From IMG/VR virus record IMGVR_UViG_3300042937_000753, positions 1 to 64,000 of that record: a stretch of 64,000 nt of DNA; one strand, given 5' to 3'. The stretch is from a virus. This document shows, piece after piece, positions 1 to 18,080 of this stretch (position 1 is its first letter; the number at the start of each line of letters is the position of its first letter). The position numbers and the translations under genes were made by a program. The notes beneath the pieces were generated by a model. The model had not been told where the DNA came from, made no database searches, and saw nothing but the letters and a program-made list of their open reading frames with translations.

Positions 1-2938
1 TTTTTCAGGTTCTTCTTTAGAAAGTATATTTGCAGATAGCGGGGAAAATCTAGCTAAAGAAGGAAAACATGTAACAACTCCAGCTTATGATAAAACATAT
101 CCTGGATATCAATTATTGGGTCCAGTAATAACGGGTGCAATAAATGCTATCGCAGGAGGTGGTATGGCATTATTATACTTTGTAGAGGGAGCAAATGCAA
201 CGGTAGATGTAATGTATGCTTTGATAAGAAAAAGACAGTATGCACTTGAACTTGTAGGACATGGTGATTATGATTCTTTTGTAGCACCAAATACACAATT
301 TGATAGAAGATTTATTATGGAAGATGGAATATTTGTAACAGATCAGTTACAAGCTTTTCCGGAATATCAAGATCCAGCAAATCCAGGAGTTCAAGTTAAA
401 TATACTATTAATAATATTAAAAGACCTAAGCTAGCTGTAGTAAGAACAAGAAGAAGTAACAATACATTGGATGGTCCTCATTTCTTATTAGATTCAAATG
501 GTCTAAGCATTGATAGATCTTTAATGACTCTAGGACATGCTATCAGGACATTTAACCCATTAGCAATGTTTTCACTTGGAGTATTTGCTCCCGGTAAAGT
601 TAACTGGTCAGAAAAAGGAAAATCAAGAAATTTTATTAATCCTATTGCAAGTCATTATGCTGGTTTAAAATTTAGAATAGAAAATCAGTATGGACAATTA
701 GATACTGTACAACAAGTTGTGATTACACCATGTGAACAAAAAATAAATTTTAAAACATCTGGAGGTGCTAACTCATTAGCTATTACATCTTATGGTACAT
801 CATGTGGTATACCTAATTTTACACAGAAAAAATTATTCTCTCCTGTATTTTTTGGAGGAGATACATATATAAATAGATTTACAGAAAAGAATATAATGCC
901 TTTCTTTTATGAATGGTTATATGATGTTCCAGATAATATTGAGTGGAACTACTTCTTAAATCAAATGATCCCAGAACCTAAGTTTCAAGTAAATAGTCAA
1001 CCCTGGGATATTAGTGATTTTAATTTAAGTAATGTAATTGGCTTGTTTACTCAAGCTGATTATGGAGAAGGTTTACTTCCTAGAAGTTACTATGACTTAG
1101 ATTGTATTGGTTATAATCTTGCAACTAATCTTGTTATTACATATCCAGGAACTTTTTCTGTAAAAAAATCTTATTTTTATTTAGCTGCATGTGGAGCTAG
1201 AGATTTCTTTGTTGAGTCAGAAGTACTTGTAGATTTTAGAGATCCCGGAACATTCCCTTGGCAACAACCTTATAATAAATATAATTATACTGATATAAGA
1301 GCAATGTTTGATGCAGATCCTCAAGTATTAAGTAAAGGAAATTATTATGCTTATGATTATAGTTTGAGTGCATCAAGATTTTTATTTAATCAATATTTTA
1401 CGGCAGGCTTTTTACAAGGTAGTACATATGATCCTGAAGTAGCTGAGTTGTGTTATGTAAGTTATCCAAATAGAATAACCTACTCATTACCTCAACAAGA
1501 GTCAAGTCTTATTGATGCATGGAGAGTATTTCTTCCATTAAATAAAATTGACTTTAAAAGTAAACTTAGTTCAGTTAAGAACTTTGCTAAGACGGGTATG
1601 TTTATCACATTTGAAAATGATAGCCCTTTAATTTTCCAAGGTACTGATACAATACAACTTGATGATAGTGGAACAAAAGTAACTGTAGGAGATGCTGGGT
1701 TATTTCAACAAGCACCACAAAATGTTGTTGTTGCAGAAAAACCATATGAATATGGATCTTCTCAAAACAAGTATGGTGTAGTTTCAACTCCCGCAGGACT
1801 TTTCTATATATCACAAAATCAAGGGAAGATCTTTTCCTACAGAGAAGGATTAAAAGAAATATCTCAAACAGGTATGAAGTGGTGGTTCAGTGAATTTCTA
1901 CCATATAAACTATTAGAAGATTTTCCAAGCTATCCCCATACTGATAATCCAGTAGCTGGTATAGCATGTATGGCTAGTTATGATAATGATAATAGTGTAT
2001 TATTCTTTTCTAAAAAAGACTATAGATTAAGAGAACAATATAAAGGTTTAGTAACATATAGTGAATTTAATGATACATTTTATTTAGTAAATTTATCAGG
2101 TTCAGCAACTAAAATAAAGTTAGGTAATCCAACATACTTTTATGATGCATCTTGGACAATGAGTTATGATCCTAAATTAGAGTTCTGGGTTAGTTTCCAT
2201 GACTGGCATCCTGATTTTTATATTCCTAGTAAAGGAACCTTTCTTACTACTAAGAAAGATGGTATATGGAAACACAGTGCATTTTGTAATGACTACTGTA
2301 ATTTTTATGGTGTACAATATCCTTTTGAAGTTGAACTACCTGTAGTAACATCTCAAATGGTTAACACTATAAAAAGTATTGAATACTATTTAGAATGTTA
2401 CAGAAGGGATAGAGATTTATGTATAGATCAGTTTCATGTACTAGATTATAATTTTGATAGAGCTGTTGTATATAATTCAGAACAAATATCTGGTTATCTT
2501 AATCTTAATCTATATCCTAAAAATGATATTCCATTATCATTACAGTTTCCAAAATTAGCACCTGACTTAGTTAGTTATGATATCTTATATGCTAAAGAAG
2601 AACAAAAGTATAGAATTAATCAGTTCTGGGATATTACTAAAAACCGTGGAGAGTTTCCAATTGGTTCATCTTATCCTCCTGCTCCAGGACCATACTTACC
2701 AAGTCCAGATTCAACGGTTCTTTTAGGAAACTATCAAGATCAAAATATATGGATTACTCAACCTAATGGCTATATAAAAAATATTAATCCCGTTAATGTA
2801 GATTATAATAAACCTGAGTTACAAAGAAAAAAACTTAGAGGATATATTAACTTTATAAATCTTACTAAGACTAATTCAAGAAACACAAACATGATTTTGA
2901 AAATAGTAAATACAAAAACTCAATACTCACCTAGATAA
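1..2938 (+). CDS. Tail stabilisation / muzzle-like structural protein of crAss-like phage (5'-partial)
   Basis: Frame is open from nt 2 with no stop before the TTG at 116, so the gene starts upstream of the window. Beta-rich C-terminal part (FGGDTYINRF, YGSSQNK, WTMSYDP..FWVSFHDWHP, KKLRG) resembles crAss-like tail stabilisation proteins, and it lies just before the cargo genes. Confidence 0.65.
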   Translation, partial: FSGSSLESIFADSGENLAKEGKHVTTPAYDKTYPGYQLLGPVITGAINAIAGGGMALLYFVEGANATVDVMYALIRKRQYALELVGHGDYDSFVAPNTQFDRRFIMEDGIFVTDQLQAFPEYQDPANPGVQVKYTINNIKRPKLAVVRTRRSNNTLDGPHFLLDSNGLSIDRSLMTLGHAIRTFNPLAMFSLGVFAPGKVNWSEKGKSRNFINPIASHYAGLKFRIENQYGQLDTVQQVVITPCEQKINFKTSGGANSLAITSYGTSCGIPNFTQKKLFSPVFFGGDTYINRFTEKNIMPFFYEWLYDVPDNIEWNYFLNQMIPEPKFQVNSQPWDISDFNLSNVIGLFTQADYGEGLLPRSYYDLDCIGYNLATNLVITYPGTFSVKKSYFYLAACGARDFFVESEVLVDFRDPGTFPWQQPYNKYNYTDIRAMFDADPQVLSKGNYYAYDYSLSASRFLFNQYFTAGFLQGSTYDPEVAELCYVSYPNRITYSLPQQESSLIDAWRVFLPLNKIDFKSKLSSVKNFAKTGMFITFENDSPLIFQGTDTIQLDDSGTKVTVGDAGLFQQAPQNVVVAEKPYEYGSSQNKYGVVSTPAGLFYISQNQGKIFSYREGLKEISQTGMKWWFSEFLPYKLLEDFPSYPHTDNPVAGIACMASYDNDNSVLFFSKKDYRLREQYKGLVTYSEFNDTFYLVNLSGSATKIKLGNPTYFYDASWTMSYDPKLEFWVSFHDWHPDFYIPSKGTFLTTKKDGIWKHSAFCNDYCNFYGVQYPFEVELPVVTSQMVNTIKSIEYYLECYRRDRDLCIDQFHVLDYNFDRAVVYNSEQISGYLNLNLYPKNDIPLSLQFPKLAPDLVSYDILYAKEEQKYRINQFWDITKNRGEFPIGSSYPPAPGPYLPSPDSTVLLGNYQDQNIWITQPNGYIKNINPVNVDYNKPELQRKKLRGYINFINLTKTNSRNTNMILKIVNTKTQYSPR

Positions 2939-4893
2939 TGTATAATAAAAAATTATTTTTAGATGCAATAAAGAATTTAAATGAAACTCCTAAAATGAAA
3001 AAAGGAGGTGGAAAAGGATTCTCTAGCAATTTAGGAGCTACTAACAGACTCTTTAAAAAGAATGGACTTTTTAAAAAGGGCCCTTTGTCTAAACCTAATC
3101 CATTATATAAAAAGAAAAACTATAAGAGTAAGACATATGATCCTCAGTCAATGTATTTTGATAATGGTGGAATCAATAAATTAGAAGGTAATCTTATTTC
3201 TAAAGTATTAATGGAAAGAAATAGAGGAGTTGATTTTGTAGATAGAGCTTTTGCATTAGGAGATAATCCAGGAACACCAATGTTTAATCTACCCGATGAT
3301 GAACAGTTTGGTCAAAACATGTCACACAAGATGGCATGGGGTGAAGATGATAATGGTCAAGCTTGGATGTATCCTACAATAATGAATCCTAATAATGAAG
3401 CTATTCAAGTTCCTAATCAATATGCTGATTATATTTCTTCTGAAGGTTATAAAAATGCAACAGGAATGAATCAATATAAAGCAGGTGGTTCTGCACCTTG
3501 TCCTCCTGGACACTACTATAATGGTAAAGAATGTGTTAAAATACCTAAAGGAGCTAAAGTAATTAAAGATCCTAAAGAATATGAAAAAAGAAAAGCTGCT
3601 TATAATGATAGTTTAGATTTGTATAAGTTAAACTCAGGCATTAAAAGACGTTTTCCAAAATTACCAGAAATCACTAAAGAAAAGTATGATGAAATAAGTA
3701 AGAAATTTGATGATTTAACAATTTGGGATATTGATAAAGTTGGATACAAAGAAGATAAAAAGTTAAAAATTAATAAACCTCTAGAAAGTTACGTTTATAG
3801 TTATAGAAATGAAGATCAATTGAAAAATCCTACATTTATTAAAAATAACAAAGATCTTTATACTGATTACAGTGATGATCATGATAAATACCAAATAAAA
3901 CTTAAAAATGGGGATATTAAAATACCAGGTATTATTTATAAAGGTAAACCTGATTTTAGTACAGCATATACTATTATTTCACCTGATGGAACATCTCGTT
4001 ATTATCATCTTAACTATGACACAAATAAATTTGAGTTAGGGGATATTTATTCAAATAAAATAAAACCTATTCATCAATCTTATTATGGTTCAGATAAACT
4101 GATAAATAATGGAAGTATATCAAGTACAGGATGGTATGGAAAAAGTAAAAAACCAAATAAAAATGAACTTAAACAATGGTTAAATCATACTTTAGATTTT
4201 GAGTATATGAATACTTATAAAAAACCTGTGCAACCTGTTGTATTAGATAAAGAATATATTAAATCTATAGTAACTCCAGTACCTCCAGGTAAAATACAAG
4301 TAGGAACAAAAGAAATACAAACTTTAAATGAGAAAACAGGAAGAGTAACAACACTTATTGAACCTGTGTATGAGGATGCGCCTATGCCAGAAAGATTACC
4401 GCTATTACCACCAAAACTTATAGATACGTCAAGAGCTGAACTACAAGGAGAGTATCAAGAAGAACCTGAATTAGTCCCTCCTAGTTGGAATCAACATGAA
4501 CCATCAACATATAGACTTCCTGTTAAACCAAAATATCGGGGTAAACTTCAAAATCCATCAAGGTATAATCCTGTTGCAGCTATCACACAATATTTTAGTG
4601 GTTATAAACCATTAGATGAGGAAGAGTATGTAGATGTAGAAGGTAGAATTGTTCCTAAAGGTTTTACTTCATTACAAGACATAGGTGTACAAAGAAGATA
4701 CAATAAAGCTTATGATGAGTATGAAACTAAAAAACAGGAATATGAAGCTAAACAACAGTTTGCAAAAGCTATGGCTGCAGGTCTTAGTTTAAAAAAATAT
4801 GGTGGTGAACCTGATTACCAACTAGGTGATGAGATTGATGAAGATACCATGAATGAGTTAAAAAGATTAGGTTATACATTTGAAGAAATTTAA
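2938..4893 (+). CDS. Putative virion cargo protein with PhixxGG motifs and C-terminal tag (651 aa)
   Basis: ORF coupled by TAATG overlap. Motifs MKKGG, FDNGG, YKAGG, KKYGG; Cys pair CPPGHYYNGKEC; C-terminus EIDEDTMNELKRLGYTFEEI. Confidence 0.6.
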   Translation: MYNKKLFLDAIKNLNETPKMKKGGGKGFSSNLGATNRLFKKNGLFKKGPLSKPNPLYKKKNYKSKTYDPQSMYFDNGGINKLEGNLISKVLMERNRGVDFVDRAFALGDNPGTPMFNLPDDEQFGQNMSHKMAWGEDDNGQAWMYPTIMNPNNEAIQVPNQYADYISSEGYKNATGMNQYKAGGSAPCPPGHYYNGKECVKIPKGAKVIKDPKEYEKRKAAYNDSLDLYKLNSGIKRRFPKLPEITKEKYDEISKKFDDLTIWDIDKVGYKEDKKLKINKPLESYVYSYRNEDQLKNPTFIKNNKDLYTDYSDDHDKYQIKLKNGDIKIPGIIYKGKPDFSTAYTIISPDGTSRYYHLNYDTNKFELGDIYSNKIKPIHQSYYGSDKLINNGSISSTGWYGKSKKPNKNELKQWLNHTLDFEYMNTYKKPVQPVVLDKEYIKSIVTPVPPGKIQVGTKEIQTLNEKTGRVTTLIEPVYEDAPMPERLPLLPPKLIDTSRAELQGEYQEEPELVPPSWNQHEPSTYRLPVKPKYRGKLQNPSRYNPVAAITQYFSGYKPLDEEEYVDVEGRIVPKGFTSLQDIGVQRRYNKAYDEYETKKQEYEAKQQFAKAMAAGLSLKKYGGEPDYQLGDEIDEDTMNELKRLGYTFEEI

Positions 4894-4895
4894 AT

Positions 4896-7800
4896 ATGAA
4901 AAAGTATATTATAACTAGCATTCCTCAAAATAAAAAACTAAACACTTATGCTAGAGGTGGTGAACCCGGAGATAAATATTTCAAGTATCAGAATACTCAG
5001 TACAAAAAAGATCCTCAAGGTAACTGGTATAAATGGAATGGTAAGAGTTGGAGTGCAGCTGGTTATGGTGACAGTGCTTATGATTTAGATCAACACATTA
5101 GTCTTCAAGACTGGGAACAAGCTGGAAGATTCCAAGCAGATGATGCTAACTGGTCAAATGATAAACCAAAAGCAACTACATCTAATTATGAAACTGAAAG
5201 AAACAAAGTTCTAAATAGTCCTTTAGCAACTACACAACAAAAAATTAAAGCAACACAGGCTCCCTTAAAGAGTAATGTTGACTTGAATAAAAAGCTTGTA
5301 GAACAAAAACAGCAAGAAGATTATTTAGCTGAGCAAAATAAGCTGAGAGAACTTCAAGAAGAACAGAGAAGAAAAGAAGAGGAAGAAGCAAGATTGTTAA
5401 ATCCTAATTTTTATAATTCAGAAACCTTGCCTGCTGTTGCTAGGCAATCCGGAGCTCTTCTTACTGAGAAAGAAGAGGATGACTTTGAAGCTCATAAGAA
5501 AGACTTAGGTCAAAAATATGAATACCTTGCAAAGGATCAGTTAGACAATAATTATGTTCGTTATAAAAGTGAATATAAAAATAATGCAAAAGCTACATTT
5601 CAAAATTTAGAGTGGGATCAAGCAGATAAACTAGCAACATTAGCAACTCAATATAATACTAATGTATCTGATGCAGACATTAGAGAACAGTTTCCAAAGG
5701 CCACTGACAAAGAGTTATCTCAATATAAAGACTTTATCAATAGTTCAAGTCGTGACCTAACTGATCAACTTCTTGGTTATGCTCATTCAGTAGATTTAAC
5801 TAAAGCTTTAAAAAAAACACATTGGAATAGCGGTCCTAATAATGATCAAGTAAAAGCTCTGGATCCAAATGATCCTAATCACATTGAGTTGTCTGGTAGA
5901 ATGCCAGGAACAGTAGGAGAATGGGGAACTAGAATAGCTGATGTTATTGCTAATCCACTTGATGCTATTCATTATGGTATGAGTCCAACAGAGGAGATGC
6001 CAATGAATATGTATGAGTATGAGAAAGCAAAACAACAAATTGGTTTTGAAGATGGTGCAGATTTAAATGCAGTTAATTCAGGTTTAGATTTTGCTTCATG
6101 GTTTCATCCAGTAGGTATGTATGCTCAAGGTATGAAAATGATTCAACCTACTGGTGAATCACTAGTTAAATTTGCACAAGATCCAAGTTGGGGTGGAGCT
6201 GGTAATGCAGCTTTAAATATTGGTATGAATGCATTAGCATTTTATGGCGCAAAAAGCCCTTTTAAATTTCTTGCAGAAAATTCTGCAGAATTAATGGCAG
6301 CACAAAAAGCTGAAATGTATGACTTTGGTTCAAAACTTAATAAATTTAACCGTGAAACTTATACAGGGCCTCAATATTATTCAGAGCAACCTTTACAAAA
6401 GTTTCTTCCTTTAGGACCTTCTAACGCACCTATTAGCGGAACAGTTCTTAAGCCAGGTCCAAACTTATTACCAACAATAAGTCAACCACATGTTGTAACT
6501 GAATCTCCCTTAACTACAATGACACCCGCTGTAGAAAAAAGAGGAACAACTCCTTTATTAGATACAAACATTTCATTGTACAGGCAACAACCTAAAGGAT
6601 ATACTAATAACTATACAGGCCCAGATGATCCAGGATTAATTGAGCATGAAGGATGGGGTAAAATAGGAGATCCAGATTATCAAGCACCTGCAATATTTCC
6701 ATATAGTACAGTTGGTAAGTGGTGGGATTCCAATGCAAGTAGAATGGCAGATACTGGTGTATCTCCAAATACTCAGATAAATTTAGCTAATAATCCACAG
6801 CAAGAGGTTGAAATTTTAAAAGTAGATATACCTTTTTCAGAAGCTTCTAAATTTGCAGCATCTAAAAATCCAGAAGCAGCTCCTTGGGCAAAACAAGATA
6901 CAGAATATATATTACCGGACAAATATAAAGAAGCAGCAGAGTCAACTCCCTTTTTAAATAAACCAGCTTCTTCTATAGATGATGTTGCAATTAATTTAGA
7001 ATCTCAAATAGCAAATTTAAAACAACAAGAAGTTTTAAATGAAGAATCTAGAAAAGTATTATGGGCGGACTATAAGGCAGGTAAGATAACAGGAGAAGAA
7101 TATAATGTTGGTGCAAAAAAATTGAACCCAAACGGGTTTGATAATCCAAGATATGAACTTGAAAAACAATTAAGAGAACATAAAGTTAAACAAGATATTA
7201 GTAATACTCCACAACAAAATATATTACAATCTGAAGAACAATTAGGTAAAAATATATCTGATGGCGGTACAAATAATAAGGGTGTATTTGAATTAGGAGA
7301 TAATTATGTAGCTAGACTAAGTGCGCATGGATATGATGATGCAAGTAGATTAGTCACTTATGCTGATAAAATTAAATCACCAAGAACAGGAAAAACATTA
7401 CAAGTTAAAGAAATAGATGGTAAAGTATATCAAGTTCAAAATAAAGTAACAGGTACTCCTATAACACAGTTATCTGAAACTGAATTACAAAATGTTCCAA
7501 AAAAACACATTGATAATTTTTGGAAAGATAAAGCTGAGTTAGATGGTTTAGGTTTATCCATAGATATAAGTGGTGGTAAATCTAATATATTTTATGATCC
7601 TAAAAAAGGATTTCAAATTATTGATTTAGGTATTGGAGAAAGTTCAGCTAATGAAGTAATTGCTGAAACTTATAAAGGACTTAAATTACCAAGTTCTGTA
7701 AAACCAGTTAAATCTAAATATAATATATCAGGGGCAACGGATCCTGTAACAGGTGATGCAAAAAAACAATTTCTTAAAGATTTACAAGAAGATGGTGATT

Positions 7801-10800
7801 ACAATTTATTTAAAGAGAATGCTAAAATAAAAGATCCTCAAACGGGAGCTTGGCAATCAAGTTTTGGTGTACCTAATGTTCAAGATGATTTTTTTAAAGG
7901 TCAAGGTTTATCTGAAGAAAATTCACTGAGTGGTATATCAGGAGCAACCGATCCTATAACAGGTGATGTAATAAACTTTTCTAAAGATGACAATCAAATT
8001 GTAAGTGATATTATAAATGATGTTAGAGAAAGAAAGATAGGTTTATGGCAAACACCTGAAGGACAAAGCAGATTACAAAAGATGATTGACAATACACCAT
8101 CTTTAAAAGGCCAAACTCCAGAATCAATGATTGAAGGTGTTGCTTCAATGACCAATTTAAATAATATATATGCTAGTAAATTAACAGCTAAAGAAAGTAT
8201 AGAATTACAAATGCTTAAGGTAGATTCATTACATGACCAAGGCTTAATTACAGATACAGATTACTTTAATCAGTCAGCAGCTCTTGATGAGGAACTTAAA
8301 ACTGTTGAATTAAGTATAGCTGAATCTGAAGAAACGTTGAATAAAAATTATGGTTTTTATTCAGCAGAATCAAACACTATGGGGATTCAACCAGGAGCTT
8401 GGAAGAATGAAGATATTGCTAAAATTGGTTCACATGAATTTGGTCATATTCTAGGTTCGTTTGGTAGAGAAGGAAAAGTAGGAACAACTTATTTAGATGA
8501 TAAGTTAAAAACATTAAAGTTATTACCTGATTCAGCAGAGCAACTAAAAATAGAATTTCCAAATGAAGCTGGTTCTAAATTATATACCACAGCCTATAAT
8601 GTAATGGGTGAGGGTAGAGATAACTATCAATCAAAAACTAAAAAGTATTTTGAGGAAGGTTCCGGTGGAACAGAAAGAGTTCCTATGGTTTCAGAAGTAA
8701 GAGAAGACATGCTAGATAAAGGAATTATTAAATCAGAATATGATAAGATAACTCCAAAAATGTTAAAGGATCATTATAAAGATTACAAAAAAACAAGAGG
8801 TGAAAAGTATCCTTTAAGAATATATGATGTAATTAAAAATGACTCTGAGAACTTCAACATTATGAGTGAGGTTCTTAATGCTCTTCCTATGATTTCTGTA
8901 GCTGCAACAGTATATGATCAGCTGGATGGTAATGATGATAATTCTGTAACTGAAGCAAGTATGCTTGGTCTTATTGGACTTATTGGAAAAAAACCTGGTA
9001 CATTTAAAATGCCTAAGAGACTTCAAGGTATAGTAAATGACTTTAAAAAGTATGGTAATGGTGCTTTGACTGGATTAAGAGAGTTGGATGTAAGATATAT
9101 TAAAAAAGAAACACAAAAACTTTTGGATGAATTTGCCAAAACAGATGTTGACTTAGGATATATATATGGTAAACCAGGTCTTTATCAGGAACAAGGAAAA
9201 TTAGAAGGTCTTATTAATACTAGAAATGATAAGTTTAAAAACTTTTTTAGAGACAGAGAACTTGTAGTTCAAGGTCTTGATCCGAAAAGTTCTTTAGCAA
9301 AGTATCTTTTTCCAGAAGCAGAAGCACGGGTAAAATTAAAACAATTTGATGTAGATCAGTATAACAAAGCAGCAGATGTGTTTAAAGTAACACCAGAAGG
9401 ATTAGAATCAAATAAACCTTCTGTGTTTGAAGGAGTAACAACTACCGGTGAAAAAACAATAACAGACTTAAGTACAGGTGAAAAAGTAAAAGCTGAAGTA
9501 AAACTCCCGGGTGCTAGAGAAGAATATAAAGTTGTTGATGGAGATCTTGTAAAAACAGATACTAGTATAAATACTCCAATTATTTCTACAGAGTATGTAA
9601 CAGCTTTAAAAAACTCAAGGAATGATGTTGAAACTAAAATACCAGGAGCAAAAGTATTTGGGTCTAGTGTTCTTGTTACTGAAGCTGGTATGCCACATAT
9701 CACAGGAGATATTGATGTATTAATTTCTCAGTCTGATTATAATAAAAATGTAAAAAACAATTTTCCTTTTGTACAAGATTATGGTCCTGCAAAACAACAT
9801 TCTGTATATAAAGACTATGGTCAAGAAGGAGTTTTAGACTTTAATATAATTCACGAAGATGCTAATGGAAAAGTAATACCATATTACAATCCTGATATAC
9901 CTGACAAGACTCCAACAGAAATAGAATTATTTAGACAGTTTTATCCTGATAAATTTCAAGAAGCTTCTGCTAAAGCAGCTACTACAGGAAAACCTTTAGA
10001 GATAAATATGTCATCAAAAGAATTTATGGCAGGTATTGATCCTCAAGTAAAAACTGTAATTGATTCATATGAAACATCACCATTCAATAAATGGGGATTA
10101 TATAATGCTAATAAAGAAAAACATATCTTAAGACCTGATGTTTTAATTGCTTATGGAAAGCCTGAAGTAGTAGCTAAAGGACAAGAAGCTTATATTAAAT
10201 CAATTGTTGGTCATAAAGGTAATTTAGGACATCAGTTTTCAGAACAAGCTTTGAGTGATGTAAATAAAAATGTTGAGGCTTTAGTAGCTATGAATTTTAA
10301 AGGTGATAATGTATTACAAGTAGCCCAAGATCCAAAAAGAATGCAATTAGCAATAAATGACTACTATATAAATAACACAGTATTCTCTAGAGAGATAAGT
10401 GAATATAGTTTACCAGGTCGTAAATATAAAGAGGATATTATAAAAACAGCTTTAACAGAATGGTTCCCAGGTAAAGGAGCAAGTTATAACGGTATTGGAT
10501 TAAACACTGTACAAAAAGGAAATCCAAATCATATTATGGCAACTGATAACCCAATTATTGGGCATAGGCAAATAGGTTTAAAATTGGATACAAATGATCC
10601 TGTATCTTATGTTAATTCAATTGTAAGAGGTACAAGTGGTAATTATGTTTTTACACCTGAAGAATTTAAATTTATTGAAGAGCTTGCTGATAAGTATATA
10701 CCAGAAGTACGTTCCCAAATGCCATCAAATTTTAAAGCAAGAGATATTTTAAATTTACAACCTAACCTGCCATTTACAAATAAACCTAAAGAATTCTTAG

Positions 10801-11777
10801 ATGAACTTTCACAAAAAACAGGTATTAGAGCAATTAGAAAAGATGAAGACTACGGAGGTTATGGGATTGCTAATGCCTCATATGCATCTCTATTAGGAAA
10901 GTTTGATGAAACTGTAGATGCTATGATGTATTCATTAAAAAAATATCATGCTTCTCCTAAAACAGCAAATGAAAGAAAAAAAGCCTTTGATAAACAAGAA
11001 TCAAAACAAAGTACTGCTGAACGACCACCTAAAATAGAAACAGTTAAAGACTTTAAAAAGTTATATGGTGTTTTAAATGGTGGACTTGCTAGTGCTGAAG
11101 CAAGACTTGTTAATTATACAGATCAACTTGCAGCATTAAATTCTTATAAAGATAATTTGATTAGCAAAATGAGTGATAAAAATAGTATTTATTTAAAAGA
11201 AGTAAATACTAAAATAGAGACTGTAACAAAAAGAAGAAAAGAGATTGTAGAACAAAAAGAGTATTTAGATAAAAAACTAACTAAGGCAAGAGATTTATAT
11301 AAGGGATTAGGTTATGGTGTTTTAGCTATAGCAGGAGTGGGTGTAGGTGTAGCCGGATTAAATTATGCTGAAACAATAACTAAACGTCAGAAGGATAAGA
11401 TAAAAGAAGCCATAAAAAGAAATGAAGAACTAAAAAACAGAGGTATAAAGCCTGAGTTTTTACATGAATATTTACCTGATGTGGTTACAGATTACATAAG
11501 AAAAAACCCTTCGGCAAAACATTGGCCAACAGGTGAAAAAATAGAAGTAACTTCTGATAGTAATATAGTAAGGCCAATGTCAACTACATTGAAAAAAGGA
11601 AATGTAGTATGGGATATGAAATACCGAGACATGGATACTAAATTAAAAACATATCAAAAGAATCTATTAAAACTAAATAAAAAGAGTTTAGGTGGTGAAA
11701 ATGAAATGGAACTTGAGTTAACTCAAAAAGAAATAGATGATTTAGTTTCTAGAGGCTATGTAGTTATTCAGAAATAA
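4896..11777 (+). CDS. Polyvalent virion-associated effector protein (2293 aa): ART-like, protein kinase-like, zincin, nucleotidyltransferase domains, TM segment
   Basis: LYR..GKWW..ILKVDIP..EYILP (ART-like); DISGGKSNIFY..IIDLG (kinase-like); HEFGH (HExxH); VFGSS..GDIDVLI (Pol-beta NTase); hydrophobic GLGYGVLAIAGVGVGVAGL; no Cys seen. Confidence 0.65.
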   Translation: MKKYIITSIPQNKKLNTYARGGEPGDKYFKYQNTQYKKDPQGNWYKWNGKSWSAAGYGDSAYDLDQHISLQDWEQAGRFQADDANWSNDKPKATTSNYETERNKVLNSPLATTQQKIKATQAPLKSNVDLNKKLVEQKQQEDYLAEQNKLRELQEEQRRKEEEEARLLNPNFYNSETLPAVARQSGALLTEKEEDDFEAHKKDLGQKYEYLAKDQLDNNYVRYKSEYKNNAKATFQNLEWDQADKLATLATQYNTNVSDADIREQFPKATDKELSQYKDFINSSSRDLTDQLLGYAHSVDLTKALKKTHWNSGPNNDQVKALDPNDPNHIELSGRMPGTVGEWGTRIADVIANPLDAIHYGMSPTEEMPMNMYEYEKAKQQIGFEDGADLNAVNSGLDFASWFHPVGMYAQGMKMIQPTGESLVKFAQDPSWGGAGNAALNIGMNALAFYGAKSPFKFLAENSAELMAAQKAEMYDFGSKLNKFNRETYTGPQYYSEQPLQKFLPLGPSNAPISGTVLKPGPNLLPTISQPHVVTESPLTTMTPAVEKRGTTPLLDTNISLYRQQPKGYTNNYTGPDDPGLIEHEGWGKIGDPDYQAPAIFPYSTVGKWWDSNASRMADTGVSPNTQINLANNPQQEVEILKVDIPFSEASKFAASKNPEAAPWAKQDTEYILPDKYKEAAESTPFLNKPASSIDDVAINLESQIANLKQQEVLNEESRKVLWADYKAGKITGEEYNVGAKKLNPNGFDNPRYELEKQLREHKVKQDISNTPQQNILQSEEQLGKNISDGGTNNKGVFELGDNYVARLSAHGYDDASRLVTYADKIKSPRTGKTLQVKEIDGKVYQVQNKVTGTPITQLSETELQNVPKKHIDNFWKDKAELDGLGLSIDISGGKSNIFYDPKKGFQIIDLGIGESSANEVIAETYKGLKLPSSVKPVKSKYNISGATDPVTGDAKKQFLKDLQEDGDYNLFKENAKIKDPQTGAWQSSFGVPNVQDDFFKGQGLSEENSLSGISGATDPITGDVINFSKDDNQIVSDIINDVRERKIGLWQTPEGQSRLQKMIDNTPSLKGQTPESMIEGVASMTNLNNIYASKLTAKESIELQMLKVDSLHDQGLITDTDYFNQSAALDEELKTVELSIAESEETLNKNYGFYSAESNTMGIQPGAWKNEDIAKIGSHEFGHILGSFGREGKVGTTYLDDKLKTLKLLPDSAEQLKIEFPNEAGSKLYTTAYNVMGEGRDNYQSKTKKYFEEGSGGTERVPMVSEVREDMLDKGIIKSEYDKITPKMLKDHYKDYKKTRGEKYPLRIYDVIKNDSENFNIMSEVLNALPMISVAATVYDQLDGNDDNSVTEASMLGLIGLIGKKPGTFKMPKRLQGIVNDFKKYGNGALTGLRELDVRYIKKETQKLLDEFAKTDVDLGYIYGKPGLYQEQGKLEGLINTRNDKFKNFFRDRELVVQGLDPKSSLAKYLFPEAEARVKLKQFDVDQYNKAADVFKVTPEGLESNKPSVFEGVTTTGEKTITDLSTGEKVKAEVKLPGAREEYKVVDGDLVKTDTSINTPIISTEYVTALKNSRNDVETKIPGAKVFGSSVLVTEAGMPHITGDIDVLISQSDYNKNVKNNFPFVQDYGPAKQHSVYKDYGQEGVLDFNIIHEDANGKVIPYYNPDIPDKTPTEIELFRQFYPDKFQEASAKAATTGKPLEINMSSKEFMAGIDPQVKTVIDSYETSPFNKWGLYNANKEKHILRPDVLIAYGKPEVVAKGQEAYIKSIVGHKGNLGHQFSEQALSDVNKNVEALVAMNFKGDNVLQVAQDPKRMQLAINDYYINNTVFSREISEYSLPGRKYKEDIIKTALTEWFPGKGASYNGIGLNTVQKGNPNHIMATDNPIIGHRQIGLKLDTNDPVSYVNSIVRGTSGNYVFTPEEFKFIEELADKYIPEVRSQMPSNFKARDILNLQPNLPFTNKPKEFLDELSQKTGIRAIRKDEDYGGYGIANASYASLLGKFDETVDAMMYSLKKYHASPKTANERKKAFDKQESKQSTAERPPKIETVKDFKKLYGVLNGGLASAEARLVNYTDQLAALNSYKDNLISKMSDKNSIYLKEVNTKIETVTKRRKEIVEQKEYLDKKLTKARDLYKGLGYGVLAIAGVGVGVAGLNYAETITKRQKDKIKEAIKRNEELKNRGIKPEFLHEYLPDVVTDYIRKNPSAKHWPTGEKIEVTSDSNIVRPMSTTLKKGNVVWDMKYRDMDTKLKTYQKNLLKLNKKSLGGENEMELELTQKEIDDLVSRGYVVIQK

Positions 11778-11820
11778 ACTTATTATGTTTATCCATTAAA
11801 CTAAAAATTAGTATATTAAT
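11774..11820 (+). promoter_or_regulatory. Intergenic palindromic element TAAAC-N7-GTTTA followed by TAAACTAAAAATT (putative operator/late promoter)
   Basis: ATAAACTTATTATGTTTAT at 11774-11792; near-identical architecture at 18022-18060. Confidence 0.5.
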
Positions 11821-11836
11821 ATATAGAACATGTTTT

Positions 11837-14800
11837 ATGAAAAAAATAAAAGTAAGAATATACAAAGATCCAAATGGTCAAGGAGAGTATGTAAACAAAA
11901 CTGCTAACTTTTTGAAAAAGGCTCGTAGTGGAATGCAAGTTGATAGTCTTGAACTAGAAGAAGAAATATTAAATCAACTAGCTATTACACAAGATGTTGA
12001 TGTAATTGCAAGTAAGCTAGAGGATGATTATGGACTAGATTATTTTGAAGCATTAGATCAAATTGAAAATGTAGTTGGTGGTCTTTATAGACAAGATGTA
12101 ACTGCAACAAAAAATGAAATACTAGATCAAGATCCAAATGTTGATCAACCAGAAGTTATTAAACCAAAATTATATAATACCGATGAACCATGGGTATCAG
12201 ATGATAATAGTGGTTGGGATGATTTTGGTGAAGAAACAGAAGATGCTGAAGGTACATCAGAATATGATGATTTAGCACAAGAAGATGAACAAGCATTATC
12301 TTTACAAAAAAAAGGAGGAACCGTGAGTAAAAAGAAATTTGTTAAAACAGTTGTAAGAGGTCTTAGAAAAGCTGCAGAAGGAATGCAACAAGAGCAATCT
12401 AGTGAAGCATCTCCTATGGATATTCCAATAGGTGGTAGAGCAAGTCATATAGCTAGTTTTAGAAGAGGTTTAAAAGATTTAGGTAATGAGTTTTATGCTA
12501 AGAAAATTTATGATGAAACTCAAAAATTAAAAAATGAAACAGAACAGTTACCAACTGTACAACCAGGAATGATGAGAGCACAATACGGAATGCAAATGGA
12601 AAAAGATCCTGAAGATTATTCACATCATCTTTTAGCTTTAGCAGAAGCTAATTCAAATATATTTGATGAACCTATGAATCAAATACACGGAGCAGGTTTT
12701 GAAAACATTCCTGAAGCTAGAAGAGGTAGAGAACAAAGACAAGCTGATAGACAACAAAAAAATATGTCTAAAGATTGGAATAATGCATTTGGAGATATGG
12801 CTGCGGGATATTTTGGTGTACCAGGGATGCCTAATTATTTACAAGTAGTTAATCCACAAATGGTTAATCCACAAGCTAATGTAACTTCTCAAAATCAAGG
12901 AAACCCAACAGGTCCATTTATAGATGTTAACTATAAAAAAGGTCCTTGGTGGTCAGGTAAAAGAGAATGGTCTGCTAAAGGAATTCCTGCAGAAATGTTA
13001 ATGGGTGCTGGAAGAGGTAATGGTGTTATGCCAGGTCATGGTTATATGCCTAGCAATTCATGGTCAAATAGTTCATCATGGAACACACAAAGAAATTTTC
13101 CTGGTGAAATCATAAGAAGTAAATCTAGAACTATTAATGCTGCGGCAGATCCTGCAAAGAATAGTCGTACAAGTTCTACAACAACTACAAGTAATAGTTC
13201 AAGCAGTAACATATCAACTGTTTTAAATAATAATTCTGAAGAAAATAACACTGCACAGAATCTAGAAGAAAATGAGTATGAGAGAAGTTTTATGGATAAA
13301 ACATTGGATCCAGAAAACAAAATGCATGGTACTCAGTTTTCTTTTATGAATGTTCAAGATCCGGAAGAGTTAAGACAAGGAAACTTTGATAACTATTATT
13401 TTACAGATCCTAAAACAGGTGTGACTTATATGTCTAATAATTTTGGTACTGAGATGGATGCTGGAAAAGAATCATGGAATCCGGTTACATTACCTCCAGA
13501 GCAAATGGAAAGATTAGGACATCCAATTCAACATTGGGATTCAGATCCTAATAATCCAGATGGAGCTCCTATATATAATCCTGAAAAAAGCAGATTCATA
13601 AAACCAAATAATTGGTTACAATATGAGTATGATCAAAATAAAGAGATGGGTCAACCTTTTGATGAAGATAAATATTATCAAACTAATTATCCTCAAGAAT
13701 ATAACCAACTCATTAAAGCATATGGTGGGCCGGTGAGTAATCCACAGATGGATGCCAATGGTAATCTACAAAGATTTGTTTACGGAGGTAATGATATGGG
13801 TGTATCACCAATTGTAGCATATGATAATAATGATATTAACTCTAAAGACATAGATGATCCATTCATGTTTAGAAAAGGTGGTTTATATAAGTATGAAGGA
13901 GAAGAGAATAGTCAAGTTGATTATACTGTTACAAATCCTCCTGCGGCTACTCCACCAAACCAGTATCAGACTCCTGCATTTAATAGATACAATTCTAATG
14001 CAACATCTCAAAGTAACTTTGCTGCATTTAATGAAATGAAAAAGAGAGGTTTAGTAACAGGTAATTATAATCCTGCTCAATCATATGATATGAGTAATAC
14101 TGGTACAACTACAAAAACATCTGGTAGTTCTGGTATAAAAGCAAATTCACCAGCTCCAGGTTGGACATGGGAAGAATGGAATGCGTTACCAGAATCAGCA
14201 AGAACTAAGATTGGTCAAAATTTACAAGGACAAAATACCCAAAATCAAGGTACTACAACTCAAGGTGGTTATCCTACAGCACCTTCAATAAAACAACAGT
14301 TGTTAGATAAGTTTTCTCCATTTAAGAGAAATCAACAAACTGGAAAATTTTATGACTTTATGTGGGCATCTCAACAAGGTGCTCCAACTACTGCAGATGG
14401 TAAACCATATCAAGTACCAGGTGGAACACAACCTGGTCAAGGACAACCTGGTACTGGACAACCAGGGCAAGGACAAGGTGCACCAGGACAACCAAATAAA
14501 GCAGGTTATTACTATGACTATAAGCTTGAAAAAGGGCCTTGGTGGAAAGGAAATAAACAAAGTATGTCTATGACTGGTAAATGGATAGACCCTAACAATC
14601 CTAATGCAGGTACCTCAGCAAATACAGGACAATTTAATAATGGTCAAGGACCTACAGTTAATGCTGGTAATACTAATCAACCTACTACAAATACAGGTGT
14701 TCAACCTGATGGTACTAGATTTGTAAAAGGTATGTCAATTGGTGATAATCAAATGATAAAAACCAATACAGATGTTAAGGGTAATAATATGGGTATTGAT

Positions 14801-15544
14801 AATAAAGGTAGACTTGTAAGTTCTGGAGCTCCGGGACGTACAACAGCACCTGCTACAACTCCACCAGAAGTTGTAGAAGAATATCCTGGATTACCATTTG
14901 AATATGGTGGTTACATGGCTTATGGTGGTAATGTTCCAGAGTTTCAACTTGCTGGTCAGTTTAGTGGAAGTGGTCCTTTTGATCCTAATAATAATGTAAA
15001 TACTATTAATAATGTAAATACTAATGATTGTAGTGAAGAAGATACAAAAGATCCAAACAGTCCTTGTTATGTTCCTGCTTTTGCTAGACCTGGTGCAACT
15101 CTACAAGAAATGATGGGTACAAATACAAATACAAATACTGAGCAACCTAAAGATTTTACAGTAAATTATGAACTTAATAAAGCAAGAACTCTTGATTTAG
15201 GAAACGTAGGTAATATTGGAATGGCTGCAGCAAGAATAGGAACAGGTGCTGGTAATATGGCAGACACTATGTATAATGAAAATTATCTTAATTCAAGAAC
15301 AGATAGTGGTAATAGAGAATCTGTAAACTACAATGAAACACATGGTGGATATCTAGAGGATGGAAGAATTGGTGCTAAACAACAAGGTAGAGGAGCAAAA
15401 GGATTTAACAGTGTTGTTGGTACAGGTGCCTTTAGTAAATTGGGTGGTCAATTAAAATATGCAAAAGGTGGTGTATATGATCTTACAGAAGAAGAAGTAG
15501 GTAAAATACTTGCTGCTGGTGGTCAAATCAAATTTATAAAATAA
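11837..15544 (+). CDS. Low-complexity virion cargo protein with about 13 PhixxG(G/M) motifs, N- and C-terminal tags (1235 aa)
   Basis: ARSGM, QKKGG, AAEGM, AQYGM, AYGG (x2), FVYGG, FRKGG, FEYGG, SKLGG, YAKGG; G/Q/P/N/T-rich; duplicated KGPWW element. Confidence 0.6.
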   Translation: MKKIKVRIYKDPNGQGEYVNKTANFLKKARSGMQVDSLELEEEILNQLAITQDVDVIASKLEDDYGLDYFEALDQIENVVGGLYRQDVTATKNEILDQDPNVDQPEVIKPKLYNTDEPWVSDDNSGWDDFGEETEDAEGTSEYDDLAQEDEQALSLQKKGGTVSKKKFVKTVVRGLRKAAEGMQQEQSSEASPMDIPIGGRASHIASFRRGLKDLGNEFYAKKIYDETQKLKNETEQLPTVQPGMMRAQYGMQMEKDPEDYSHHLLALAEANSNIFDEPMNQIHGAGFENIPEARRGREQRQADRQQKNMSKDWNNAFGDMAAGYFGVPGMPNYLQVVNPQMVNPQANVTSQNQGNPTGPFIDVNYKKGPWWSGKREWSAKGIPAEMLMGAGRGNGVMPGHGYMPSNSWSNSSSWNTQRNFPGEIIRSKSRTINAAADPAKNSRTSSTTTTSNSSSSNISTVLNNNSEENNTAQNLEENEYERSFMDKTLDPENKMHGTQFSFMNVQDPEELRQGNFDNYYFTDPKTGVTYMSNNFGTEMDAGKESWNPVTLPPEQMERLGHPIQHWDSDPNNPDGAPIYNPEKSRFIKPNNWLQYEYDQNKEMGQPFDEDKYYQTNYPQEYNQLIKAYGGPVSNPQMDANGNLQRFVYGGNDMGVSPIVAYDNNDINSKDIDDPFMFRKGGLYKYEGEENSQVDYTVTNPPAATPPNQYQTPAFNRYNSNATSQSNFAAFNEMKKRGLVTGNYNPAQSYDMSNTGTTTKTSGSSGIKANSPAPGWTWEEWNALPESARTKIGQNLQGQNTQNQGTTTQGGYPTAPSIKQQLLDKFSPFKRNQQTGKFYDFMWASQQGAPTTADGKPYQVPGGTQPGQGQPGTGQPGQGQGAPGQPNKAGYYYDYKLEKGPWWKGNKQSMSMTGKWIDPNNPNAGTSANTGQFNNGQGPTVNAGNTNQPTTNTGVQPDGTRFVKGMSIGDNQMIKTNTDVKGNNMGIDNKGRLVSSGAPGRTTAPATTPPEVVEEYPGLPFEYGGYMAYGGNVPEFQLAGQFSGSGPFDPNNNVNTINNVNTNDCSEEDTKDPNSPCYVPAFARPGATLQEMMGTNTNTNTEQPKDFTVNYELNKARTLDLGNVGNIGMAAARIGTGAGNMADTMYNENYLNSRTDSGNRESVNYNETHGGYLEDGRIGAKQQGRGAKGFNSVVGTGAFSKLGGQLKYAKGGVYDLTEEEVGKILAAGGQIKFIK
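14428..14495 (+). repeat. Coding tandem repeat encoding QPGQG-QPGTG-QPGQG-QGAPG-QP
   Basis: Degenerate 15-nt units such as acaacctggtcaagg / acaacctggtactgg / acaaccagggcaagg. Confidence 0.7.
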
Positions 15545-15547
15545 GAC

Positions 15548-18022
15548 ATGAGAGTTCAAATAACAAAGTTACCTATTGATAAAGCTGCTTATGGAAAGCA
15601 GGTACAAGGATCATTGTCTTTAAGTCCAGGAGCTTTTGGTGGTGGTGATTATAAAGCATCAAGTGATAAATCTTATCGTGGTGTTAGAGGTTCAGTGGAT
15701 GAAGTTCCTAGAGAAGAAGCTAACTTAGAGGCTGAAGGTGGAGAAACTGCTTTTGGTCCTATAACAGGACAGTCAATACCTGATCATTTAAAGATTAAAG
15801 GTAAAAGACATACTGAAGGTGGTGTACCTTTGAATCTTCCAGATGACACTTTTATTTTTAGTGACACAGCTTCACTAAGAATAAATGATCCATCTGTATT
15901 AGCAATGTTTAATAAGACACCTAAGAAAGGTGGTTATACTCCTGCAGAAATTGCAAAGCCCTATAACATCAATAAATATAAATCAATCTTATTAGATCCT
16001 GATACAAGTAGGTTAGAAAGAGATACTGCTACTATCATGATTAAGAATTATATTATGAAGTTAGGTTCACTTGCATTAGTTCAAGAATCTATGAAAGGAT
16101 TTCCACAAGGTATTCCAGAAATGGCTAAGCCATATATGGAAGCTAATGGAATTGCTGAAGAGGACTTAATGCCAGAGTTAAAAGAACAAGCTGATGCATT
16201 AGAGCAAGCAATGAGTTCTGGTCAACCTACAGGAATGCAACAAGGACAAAATCCAATGGCTGCTCAAGAGATGCAACAAATGGATCCTGAGCAAGCTATG
16301 CAGGCAGACCAAGCAATGATGAATCAAGGACAAGGTCAACCATCTTATCCACAACAAATGCCTAGTGGAGCTCCTGTAGCTTCACCAGAAATGATGCAAC
16401 AAATGGCTGGTCAAGGTTCTATGCCTCCACCAGACATGATGCAAGAACAAGGTATGATGCAATATGGCGGAATGCCCTATGCTGCTTATGGTATGGAAAT
16501 GGGAGGTTATGACTTTCCATATGATCCAAATCAAATGGCTATGGGTGGTATGCCTAAGTTTTCTGGTCCTGGAAATAGTCAAGTTAATGGTGGCCCTGGC
16601 GGGCCTGGTGGTCCAACAGTTACAGTAAATAATATTGCTGCTACTAGAACAAATGCTGCCCCAACTGAACAAGGATGGACTCAGGGTACACCTGTTGGTG
16701 CAACTGGTCAAAATGCACAAGGTTGGTCTAGAACAACAAGAGGTCAAGGAGAGGCTGTAACATATCATACTGGCAGCGGAGGAGGAACTGAAAGAGGGGT
16801 TGCTCAAGGAATCTGTTCTAAAATTAATAAATCAGGTAATATTGAAGAAGCAATTAGAGAGGCTTTTCCTGCTTATCTAAAAGGTAAAAGACAAGGTGAT
16901 CCAGGTTATGAAGAAGTAATGGCAGCAGCTGTTGCTAAATTATCTGCTAATCCTCTATATAAAGATTGTATTACTGCGGCTAATGCAAAATTTGTAAAGA
17001 AAACAGCAGTTTTTATGGATGAAACAGAGCCTGAAAAAAAATGTCCATGTGAAGATGAAAATGGAAATGTAATTGAAGGCATGTTTGCTAGTCAAGATGA
17101 GAATGGAAACTGTCTTGAAGAAACTTGTGGTAGTGAAACTGAAACTCTTATGTGTAAATGTGTTGATCCAGTAACAGGTGCTGAAAAAGAATTCCCTATT
17201 GAAAATGAAGAGCAATGTGTTTGTCAAGATGGTAGCCGTGGTCAAGCTGTTGCAGGAGGAATTGATTCTCCACATCTAAGTAAAAGATCTAGAATGGATA
17301 TTGCAAGAAATGCATCAATGAAAACTGGTGTAGCAAGAGACAATGTTGTTTTGCCAGGAAGAGCTCAAATAGAAGGTGCTTATGAAGAATATCAAACTAA
17401 AGTTGATACAGCTCAATCTGCAGTAAATGCAATGCAGAATGCTGTAATGAATGGTATGGCTGGATCAACAGCTTCTAAACAAGTTCAAATGAAAGATCTA
17501 CTTGGTAAGTCTTTAAGAGCTTCTATAGATGCAGTAGCTGGTGTACAATCTAGAAACGTGGATAGACAAAGAGAAACTAATGTTCAAAAGGCTAATATTG
17601 ATAATGCTAATATAAGTGCTAGAACTCTTGGAATATCAGCGGCTTTAAGCAGTCAAAAAGATTCTAGAAATCAAGAAACTGTTAATGAAAATAGAAGACT
17701 CTTTAATACAATGGGTGCTGGAATAGCAGGAGCAGATAGAATGGCTCAATTGCAACAAGTAAACAAAGGATCTAATCAATTCAATGCTGATTATGAGAAT
17801 GAGTTTGTTTATAATACGGGTGTACAAAAACCATTTACTGGTGCTGGTAGCGCATCTCTTGAAGATAGAACAAATTATTATTTAGGTAAAACTGGAGACT
17901 ATGACAAAGCATTTGAAATGGCATATAAAGAAGGAAGGCTTAATAAGACAAGACTTGGTGGTCAAAGATTAGCCAATGGGGGTTATGTTTTAGCTAGCAA
18001 TGTATATCCTTTTATATTATAA
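15548..18022 (+). CDS. Virion cargo protein with EAEGGE/HTEGGV motif, M/Q-rich segment and Cys-rich region (824 aa)
   Basis: ANLEAEGGET..GKRHTEGGV resembles a motif in crAss-like virion proteins; AAYGK, MQYGG, AAYGM, MAMGG, TRLGG, LANGG; CPC/CKC/CVC repeats. Confidence 0.6.
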   Translation: MRVQITKLPIDKAAYGKQVQGSLSLSPGAFGGGDYKASSDKSYRGVRGSVDEVPREEANLEAEGGETAFGPITGQSIPDHLKIKGKRHTEGGVPLNLPDDTFIFSDTASLRINDPSVLAMFNKTPKKGGYTPAEIAKPYNINKYKSILLDPDTSRLERDTATIMIKNYIMKLGSLALVQESMKGFPQGIPEMAKPYMEANGIAEEDLMPELKEQADALEQAMSSGQPTGMQQGQNPMAAQEMQQMDPEQAMQADQAMMNQGQGQPSYPQQMPSGAPVASPEMMQQMAGQGSMPPPDMMQEQGMMQYGGMPYAAYGMEMGGYDFPYDPNQMAMGGMPKFSGPGNSQVNGGPGGPGGPTVTVNNIAATRTNAAPTEQGWTQGTPVGATGQNAQGWSRTTRGQGEAVTYHTGSGGGTERGVAQGICSKINKSGNIEEAIREAFPAYLKGKRQGDPGYEEVMAAAVAKLSANPLYKDCITAANAKFVKKTAVFMDETEPEKKCPCEDENGNVIEGMFASQDENGNCLEETCGSETETLMCKCVDPVTGAEKEFPIENEEQCVCQDGSRGQAVAGGIDSPHLSKRSRMDIARNASMKTGVARDNVVLPGRAQIEGAYEEYQTKVDTAQSAVNAMQNAVMNGMAGSTASKQVQMKDLLGKSLRASIDAVAGVQSRNVDRQRETNVQKANIDNANISARTLGISAALSSQKDSRNQETVNENRRLFNTMGAGIAGADRMAQLQQVNKGSNQFNADYENEFVYNTGVQKPFTGAGSASLEDRTNYYLGKTGDYDKAFEMAYKEGRLNKTRLGGQRLANGGYVLASNVYPFIL

Positions 18023-18060
18023 TAAACTTAATAGGTTTAATAAACTTAAAAAATTTTAAT
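18022..18060 (+). promoter_or_regulatory. Second copy of TAAAC-N7-GTTTA / TAAACT element upstream of ejection-protein operon
   Basis: ATAAACTTAATAGGTTTAATAAACTTAAAAAATT in a 58-nt intergenic gap. Confidence 0.5.
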
Positions 18061-18080
18061 AGTTTTATAACAAAAATATT

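Follow-up and report, generated by a model that had tools for sequence, protein, structure and literature searches.

The DNA analyzed here, the window, is the first 64,000 nucleotides (nt) of IMG/VR virus record IMGVR_UViG_3300042937_000753, a crAss-like phage genome present as a single contig of 87,482 nt, and covers its late-gene end. The muzzle gene at the window start marks the beginning of the cargo gene block, in which four consecutive genes (A, A′, B and C) carry short terminal elements: a protein that ends in a small C-terminal module is followed by a protein that begins with a short, basic, amphipathic strand (N-strand) of alternating hydrophobic and charged residues. The module is 26–30 amino acids (aa) long: GG is followed by a short extended stretch, then by an acidic helix, and after a glycine comes a second such stretch (beta2). 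Sequence patterns across relatives suggest that, through the two elements, consecutive cargo proteins may dock in a donor-strand-like manner, head to tail and in gene order, a reading that we judge to have about an even chance of being correct. The genes and their terminal elements are as follows.

2–2938, plus strand: 3′ part of the muzzle gene, which runs off the window start; matches Pfam crAss_MUZ (E 7.3e-16) and a PHROG of virion structural proteins
2938–4893, plus strand: cargo gene A, 651 aa; ‘MYNKK’ head, no N-strand, C-terminal module
4798–4890, plus strand: C-terminal module of A, a divergent subtype ending LGYTFEEI, with GG before it
4896–11777, plus strand: cargo gene A′, 2293 aa; N-strand and C-terminal module
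4896–4925, plus strand: N-strand of A′, MKKYIITSIP, head type N1
11688–11774, plus strand: C-terminal module of A′, GG...ELTQKEIDDLVSRGYVVIQK
11837–15544, plus strand: cargo gene B, 1235 aa; N-strand and C-terminal module
11837–11872, plus strand: N-strand of B, MKKIKVRIYKDP, head type N2
15464–15541, plus strand: C-terminal module of B, KGG-VYDLTEEEVGKILAAGGQIKFIK, with K at the covarying column
15548–18022, plus strand: cargo gene C, 824 aa; N-strand, no module, conserved tail GG..YPFIL
15548–15574, plus strand: N-strand of C, MRVQITKLP, with Q at the covarying center

The presence of these elements, first noticed in a reading of the letters without database searches (the sequence-only reading), is confirmed as real and beyond chance. 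All six strings that it listed, three of 20 aa from C-termini and three from N-termini, are found letter for letter, and the former do lie at the C-termini, except that on the 1235-aa protein a single further residue (K) precedes the stop. The proteins are otherwise unrelated, as had been claimed: pairwise BLASTP among A, A′, B and C gives no match at E < 0.1, and none of the four matches a Pfam-A or PHROGs family at E ≤ 0.01. The linear-chain topology also holds, with A lacking an N-strand and C lacking a module (no profile match). A profile built exclusively from the tails of relatives (35 tails) and run on the six-frame translation of the whole genome (82,999 aa) matches only the end of B (E 1.9e-8) and the end of A′ (E 2.4e-6), with the next best hit at 0.28 and the best on reversed sequences at 3.9. 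A second profile, made from 20 non-window tails of the divergent subtype, finds the end of A (E 5e-14) as its sole match in the genome, the next best being 0.91. The N-strand is recognized by a regular expression composed post hoc, with the data already seen, that over all six frames of the window matches three times, once at each of these N-termini; its core occurs 714 times per 814,762 six-frame residues in random frames, so that specificity comes from position alone. A V-x-I or Y-x-I alternation is present in all three window N-strands and in those of relatives. Chance resemblance of three C-termini and three N-termini might be entertained for elements this short, one of which is a weak pattern on its own; it is refuted by the relatives’ profiles, which match only these ends in the genome, and by the recurrence of the pattern in 126 sources and the 1360 representative clusters found with the module profile, and we regard it as extremely improbable.

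Relatives were collected via the conserved N-terminal domain of gene C, which gave 45 loci from viral contigs; from metagenome contigs, the best 80 of at least 337 confirmed candidate loci were used. The junction set comprises 354 unique junctions between consecutive plus-strand open reading frames (ORFs) of at least 150 aa, drawn from 126 sources. The block of muzzle gene, A, sometimes A′, B, C and the following gene D is kept in these relatives, and the terminal elements are kept with it. No cultured relative was matched by tblastn of gene C proteins (P0004 and gene C of L037) against 50,697 phage records, megablast of the region against the phage record collection gave no match, and a search of the viral contigs with P0001 confirmed no relative.

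When junctions are scored by regular expression, 136 carry both elements, 198 carry neither, 12 have the N-strand only and 8 the module only. Inspection by eye of the 20 mismatched junctions resolves them into 11 misses by the expressions, one frameshift and eight real exceptions. Tails and heads fall into subtypes that, scored in the same manner, always match: T1 with N1 at nine junctions (9/9), T2 with N2 at 62 and T3 with N3 at 74, with no cross-type pairs. Both the junction census and the subtype matching thus support co-occurrence of a C-terminal module with the N-strand of the next gene across relatives. The expected pairing of a C-terminal element with an N-terminal element in the next gene is seen at the 136 junctions with both and is broken at the eight exceptions; modules that lie inside proteins have no partner strand.

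Co-occurrence of this kind would also follow from conserved gene order if the two elements did not interact, the module being a break-tolerant connector between domains and the strand reflecting what translation initiation or N-terminal stability requires where the genome is AT-rich and protein starts are lysine-rich. We consider this quite unlikely. It is in keeping with a gene order that is conserved throughout, with tail and head types co-inherited, with domain shuffling between A and A′ proteins, with the abundance of MKK-type starts in this genome and with the frequency of the N-strand core expression in random frames, yet it does not account for a V-x-I alternation and basic center that are kept in three junction classes whose protein bodies are unrelated. 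Nor does it explain the absence of the strand from every fused or unsplit homologue, or the concerted loss and charge covariation of the two elements, described below.

The comparison of split with fused genes is the strongest line of evidence from the sequences. In five loci, B and C form one protein (three distinct sequences: L016, L018/L019 and L107/L109), and at the fusion joint G-G leads directly into the proline segment of C, with module and N-strand both absent. A corresponding comparison is available for gene A. In the unsplit gene A of L013, beta2 runs directly into SIPSL...GG...C-P...YWNG..C; at the A/A′ boundary of L002, the same SIPSL segment (16/30 residues identical to L013) comes after the N-strand MKKYRIT, while the gene upstream of A′ ends in a module, and further domains are shared between the two loci. 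Among the sequences compared, the N-strand is found only at true N-termini in the split state and never in fused or unsplit homologues.

Concerted change of the two elements is visible on a tree of full-length gene C from which the first 18 residues were removed (86 rows). An 11-row clade contains nine rows in which the B tail stops after the helix (..LAGL..) and the C head lacks V-x-I, and two rows with complete beta2 and N-strand are nested within it with support 100/98. This nesting implies at least two events, losses or gains, that altered both elements together. Across the 86 rows, no row has one element alone except for L057, a frameshift artefact: at ~9640–9830 of this locus, the terminal module of gene B is out of frame, reflecting a frameshift or an assembly error.

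Charge covariation was assessed between module column 4 after the conserved glycine and the center of the N-strand in 146 parsed unique junctions. Acid-base pairs account for 128 of these, K-Q for seven, neutral-base for seven, acid-neutral for three and K-R for one, with a parser that misregisters a few rows. Glutamine at the strand center occurs solely opposite lysine (7/7), and the K/Q combination appears in two junction classes, with six unique pairs at B-C in the window’s clade and one at A-A′ (L066). Relatives with E in the module carry R in the strand. Module and strand thus change in concert and show charge covariation at one position pair.

One part of the sequence-only reading that needs changing is the idea of the module as a terminal tag; it is instead a repeated mini-module that is common inside proteins with no partner strand following. 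A profile of 57 unique tails, run against 1.84 billion proteins, finds 1360 representative clusters at E ≤ 0.001, with 231 at ≤ 1e-10. Among the best 150 representatives, nearly all of which are gene-A-like, the module lies at most four residues from the C-terminal end in 120, about 11 more end in the divergent subtype missed by the profile, and only three start with an N-strand. Internal copies have G-G on both flanks and are followed by an S-[VI]-P-x-L...G-G segment, which also follows the N-strand in A′-type and C-type proteins. Neither the 150 representatives nor any ORF of the 126 sources has an N-strand within 25 aa after an internal module. Eight of ten module-rich representatives have no Pfam match, and the module, with its 1360 representative clusters and no Pfam or PHROG entry, constitutes a large unannotated family.

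Structure prediction with AlphaFold2 (AF2) bears on both elements. For residues 1–230 of C (67 aligned sequences), it gives a confident domain at ~45–220, with a predicted local distance difference test (pLDDT) score near 90, preceded by residues 1–42 at pLDDT 38–47 with no secondary structure and outside the folded domain. The N-strand of C is thus predicted to be a disordered extension, and this unstructured N-terminus fits a free docking strand. Since C has no module of its own, any partner of its N-strand must be another protein. The domain itself (residues ~45–220, window 15680–16210) is highly conserved and has no assigned fold; Foldseek finds no match to it in the PDB at E ≤ 0.001. Complex prediction for residues 1–120 of C with the last 60 residues of B, using 22 rows each from 32 unique pairs with the degenerate clade and near-duplicates excluded, returned scores of 0.10 and 0.11, which count neither way.

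A number of observations weigh against docking. Physical binding of module and N-strand is something that we infer from sequence patterns, and the junction regular expressions, like the window’s N-strand expression, were devised post hoc. Conserved gene order means that the matching of subtypes is tied to synteny and is not independent evidence. The first 45 loci hold 28 distinct internal copies of the module by the tail profile, and 149 of the 150 representatives hold at least one internal copy (235 in all) with no partner strand, so the module must have a function of its own. At seven unique junctions (L018, L107, L040, L085, L057, L070 and L074), the N-strand of B comes after a protein without a terminal module; L074 also has one module followed by a head without the strand pattern. 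In a clade comprising L029/L032, L114, L116/L117 and L125, gene B is divided into two genes, and the new joint carries neither element. One like-charge pair, K-R, occurs at L089, and the number of K/Q events within the window’s clade is left unsettled because the base of the tree is a polytomy. Concerted change and covariation are both weakened by the spacing of the two elements, which lie ~50 nt apart, so that one recombination patch could carry both. Finally, the AF2 model of an internal module (28 aligned copies) has a mean pLDDT of 68 and contains a helix only, with no sheet. The strand-helix-strand fold that had been assigned to the C-terminal element is therefore not recovered, AF2 assigning only the helix to the module alone, and its autonomous folding cannot be claimed. 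Taken together, docking as originally put forward draws support from co-occurrence, loss on fusion, concerted change and covariation, and loses ground on the nature of the C-terminal element, its fold and the exceptional junctions.

The exceptional junctions have features of their own. Several of the module-less upstream proteins end in a conserved hydrophobic tail (..TGAG.AL.D or ..GALLIP..), which might be a substitute for the module. The usual terminal module of gene A is internal in L040 (367–7092), L085 (47–6136), P0050, P0095, P0136 and P0143, where it precedes an extra domain of ~700 aa with a conserved end, ..FTGAG[MA][AV]L[VL][DE]. At the loci with a divided gene B (L029 5289–9987, L114 3125–8441, L116 5457–9987 and L125 25–2833), the first gene ends in a lysine-rich stretch without a module, while the second encodes ~250 aa, starts MY[SN][KR]K like gene A and carries a terminal module. 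Chain-starting proteins may be marked by the ‘MYNKK’ head.

The internal copies and the exceptional junctions are in line with another explanation, in which modules and strands are independent assembly or processing signals. These would bind a shared procapsid partner (scaffold, portal or tail barrel) or mark protease sites in polyprotein-like cargo, and gene boundaries would coincide with the signals merely as both separate functional units. We regard this as somewhat unlikely. Modules that are internal, repeated and flanked by GG on both sides would be natural under it, as would the GG-plus-proline segment that joins domains directly where the module is absent (the B-C fusions) and the seven junctions at which the B N-strand has no terminal module upstream. 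What it leaves unexplained is that the N-strand never follows internal modules, that beta2 and strand are lost jointly, and that the module changes from E to K together with a change of the strand from R to Q; moreover, the lack of an N-strand in gene A means that the strand is not a signal common to all cargo proteins. A processing role could draw on the HExxH motif in the 2293-aa protein, while searches for protease families came back negative: C48, S78 and ClpP were each found in 0/5 records, four of which are at least 90% complete. Families C5 and S77 were also found in 0/5 records, but their controls matched nowhere, so that these searches are uninformative, and a protease of another, unknown kind may be encoded.

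A precedent for independent signals is the capsid targeting sequence of phage T4, a short conserved terminal peptide that suffices to load diverse internal proteins into the head (PMC3012670). The elements described here resemble it in being short, conserved terminal peptides on otherwise diverse injected proteins. In T4, a single N-terminal peptide common to the internal proteins directs them to the scaffolding core (PMC3012670), whereas the elements here are paired across C- and N-termini in three matching subtypes, with gene A lacking an N-strand altogether. Signals of the T4 type are also removed by a prohead protease, a trait on which the protease searches above bear.

Under the docking reading, the four genes after the muzzle gene would encode virion cargo (ejection) proteins, and the N-strand of each protein would pair with beta2 of the terminal module of the protein before it. 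Hydrophobic residues on one face of the strand would pack, and the central acid-base pair would form a salt bridge on the other face, resulting in a non-covalent chain A-A′-B-C in gene order. Such a chain would determine the order of the cargo, both at packing and when it is later threaded through the tail, with A nearest the muzzle and, by analogy to crAss001, first out. Chaperone-usher pili offer a well-known case of a linear chain built in this way, in which the N-terminal extension of subunit n+1 completes the beta structure of subunit n; the pilus subunits are incomplete immunoglobulin (Ig) folds of ~150 aa. The phage N-strands share with these donor strands their alternating hydrophobic residues. 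Unlike the pilus subunits, the candidate acceptor in the phage is a module of 26–30 aa rather than an incomplete Ig-like fold, there is no chaperone or usher, and the chain would be made up of unrelated proteins whose gene order is fixed.

In the literature, the mechanism comes closest, by analogy, to the pairing of a short linear motif (SLiM) with a beta-hairpin docking domain in subunits of nonribosomal peptide synthetases (NRPSs) and PKS-NRPS hybrids. In the solved pair, a short terminal strand lies against beta2, with salt bridges along one side and hydrophobic contacts along the other; charged residues at the salt-bridge positions are ubiquitous, and the docking pairs set subunit order and are used to split one protein into several (PMC9113145). 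The phage proteins share several of these features: a short, disordered terminal peptide (residues 1–42 of C by AF2) faces a small element at the terminus of the neighboring protein, the strand is amphipathic, an acid-base position pair is conserved, and the pairing is present only where the proteins are separate. Judged from sequences alone, the salt-bridge position of the NRPS pairs may have its counterpart in the acid-base combination at 128/146 junctions, with K-Q at seven. The polarity is reversed, however, the phage strand being N-terminal and the larger element C-terminal. The NRPS docking domain is a folded alpha-beta-beta-alpha-alpha unit at the downstream N-terminus, whereas the phage module has 26–30 aa and one helix by AF2; the phage cargo proteins are not biosynthetic enzymes, and a sequence relation is not seen (no Pfam match). 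Because polarity and fold differ, the parallel is one of analogy and not of membership. Two other candidates were considered and rejected: stop-codon read-through, as the gaps between B and C (1–10 nt) are not consistently in frame, and split inteins, as the elements are far too short and have no conserved catalytic residues.

The assignment of A to C as cargo leans on crAss001, for which the structural account provides several points of reference. In that phage, cargo proteins present in the virion are encoded downstream of the muzzle gene, with gp45 and gp46 immediately next to it and ahead of the virion RNA polymerase genes (PMC10172136). The first cargo protein spans tail and capsid; cargo, gp45 included, is proposed to be stored partly unfolded in the tail and capsid and to be ejected N-terminus first, in an order likely governed by packing and by the mutual interactions of the cargo proteins (PMC10172136). 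Genes A to C likewise sit after the muzzle gene, and the three giant ORFs downstream of gene D (21304–46481) are assumed to form the polymerase block, so that the location agrees with that of crAss001 cargo. In contrast to the present phage, crAss001 has no module-bearing genes between its muzzle gene and gp45, and the part of the account at hand describes no terminal docking elements on its cargo proteins (PMC10172136). Direct comparisons of the proteins gave no match: gene C shows no detectable similarity to crAss001 gp45 (hhalign probability 0.1 with alignment A1), and gene D against gp46 has a best BLASTP E of 0.59.

A wider form of the docking reading, which we consider unlikely, is that module and N-strand form a portable ‘split-here’ connector. 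Together with other connectors in the next genes, such connectors would join all cargo into one thread from muzzle to capsid, in which gene order equals packing order and ejection order; effector genes would join via cognate ends, and the starters would be the ‘MYNKK’ proteins, encoded by gene A and, in one clade, by the small gene B2. Crassviruses load and order megadaltons of cargo protein, and if docking were correct, its rule would be readable at gene boundaries, making cargo order predictable from the genome. It would also explain how effector domains (VanY, SET and DarB-like segments) are swapped without losing delivery, and the pairs could serve as small orthogonal connectors by which foreign proteins are loaded into phage particles. 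In the literature searched, supplements aside, we came across no account of tags of this kind in crassviruses, nor of phage cargo proteins docking head to tail.

The composition of the cargo proteins shows further traits. Residues 1129–1342 of protein A′ resemble the unsplit gene A of relative L015 (E 1.5e-13), and domains are shuffled among A and A′ proteins. The HExxH motif of A′ (..SHEFGHI.., gene at 4896–11777) suggests that a zinc peptidase may be among the cargo. Relatives of gene A contain VanY and SET domains as well as a segment similar to DarB-like antirestriction proteins; searched against the phage records, P0006 matched only a DarB-like segment, in unrelated phages. Many hydrophobic-x-x-G-G motifs are distributed along proteins A to C (2938–18022), where they flank every module, and they persist at the joint of fused B-C proteins.

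Two further features on the plus strand belong to the same block.

11778–11836, plus strand: spacer before gene B, 59 nt; 57–60 nt at the same junction in most relatives
18081–21389, plus strand: gene D, 1102 aa; N-terminus strongly conserved

Each junction class keeps a spacer length of its own: 57–60 nt before B, 55–66 nt before D, 1–10 nt before C and −1 to 2 nt before A′. Promoters or RNA elements may lie in the long spacers (11778–11836 and 18023–18080 in the window).

The junction between C and D also has conserved ends. The tail of C, GG[YF]V......[YF]PF[IL][LI] (17957–18019), and the start of D, MA.Y.QGV.D[FY]IPDYQP... (18081–18140), are very conserved and vary jointly between clades, for example ..YPFYYYE with MATFTSATFIPQLQ. 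The C-D junction may be a further link of the chain. In L026 (8822–9457), L027 (12359–12994), L033 (3418–4062), L034 (12851–13495) and L035 (7332–7976), a gene of ~211–214 aa lies between C and D. Its product opens with a copy of the D start (MATY.Q) and includes ..GIYKI.N....K.YIGCA..., a pattern that we take to resemble a GIY-YIG homing endonuclease.

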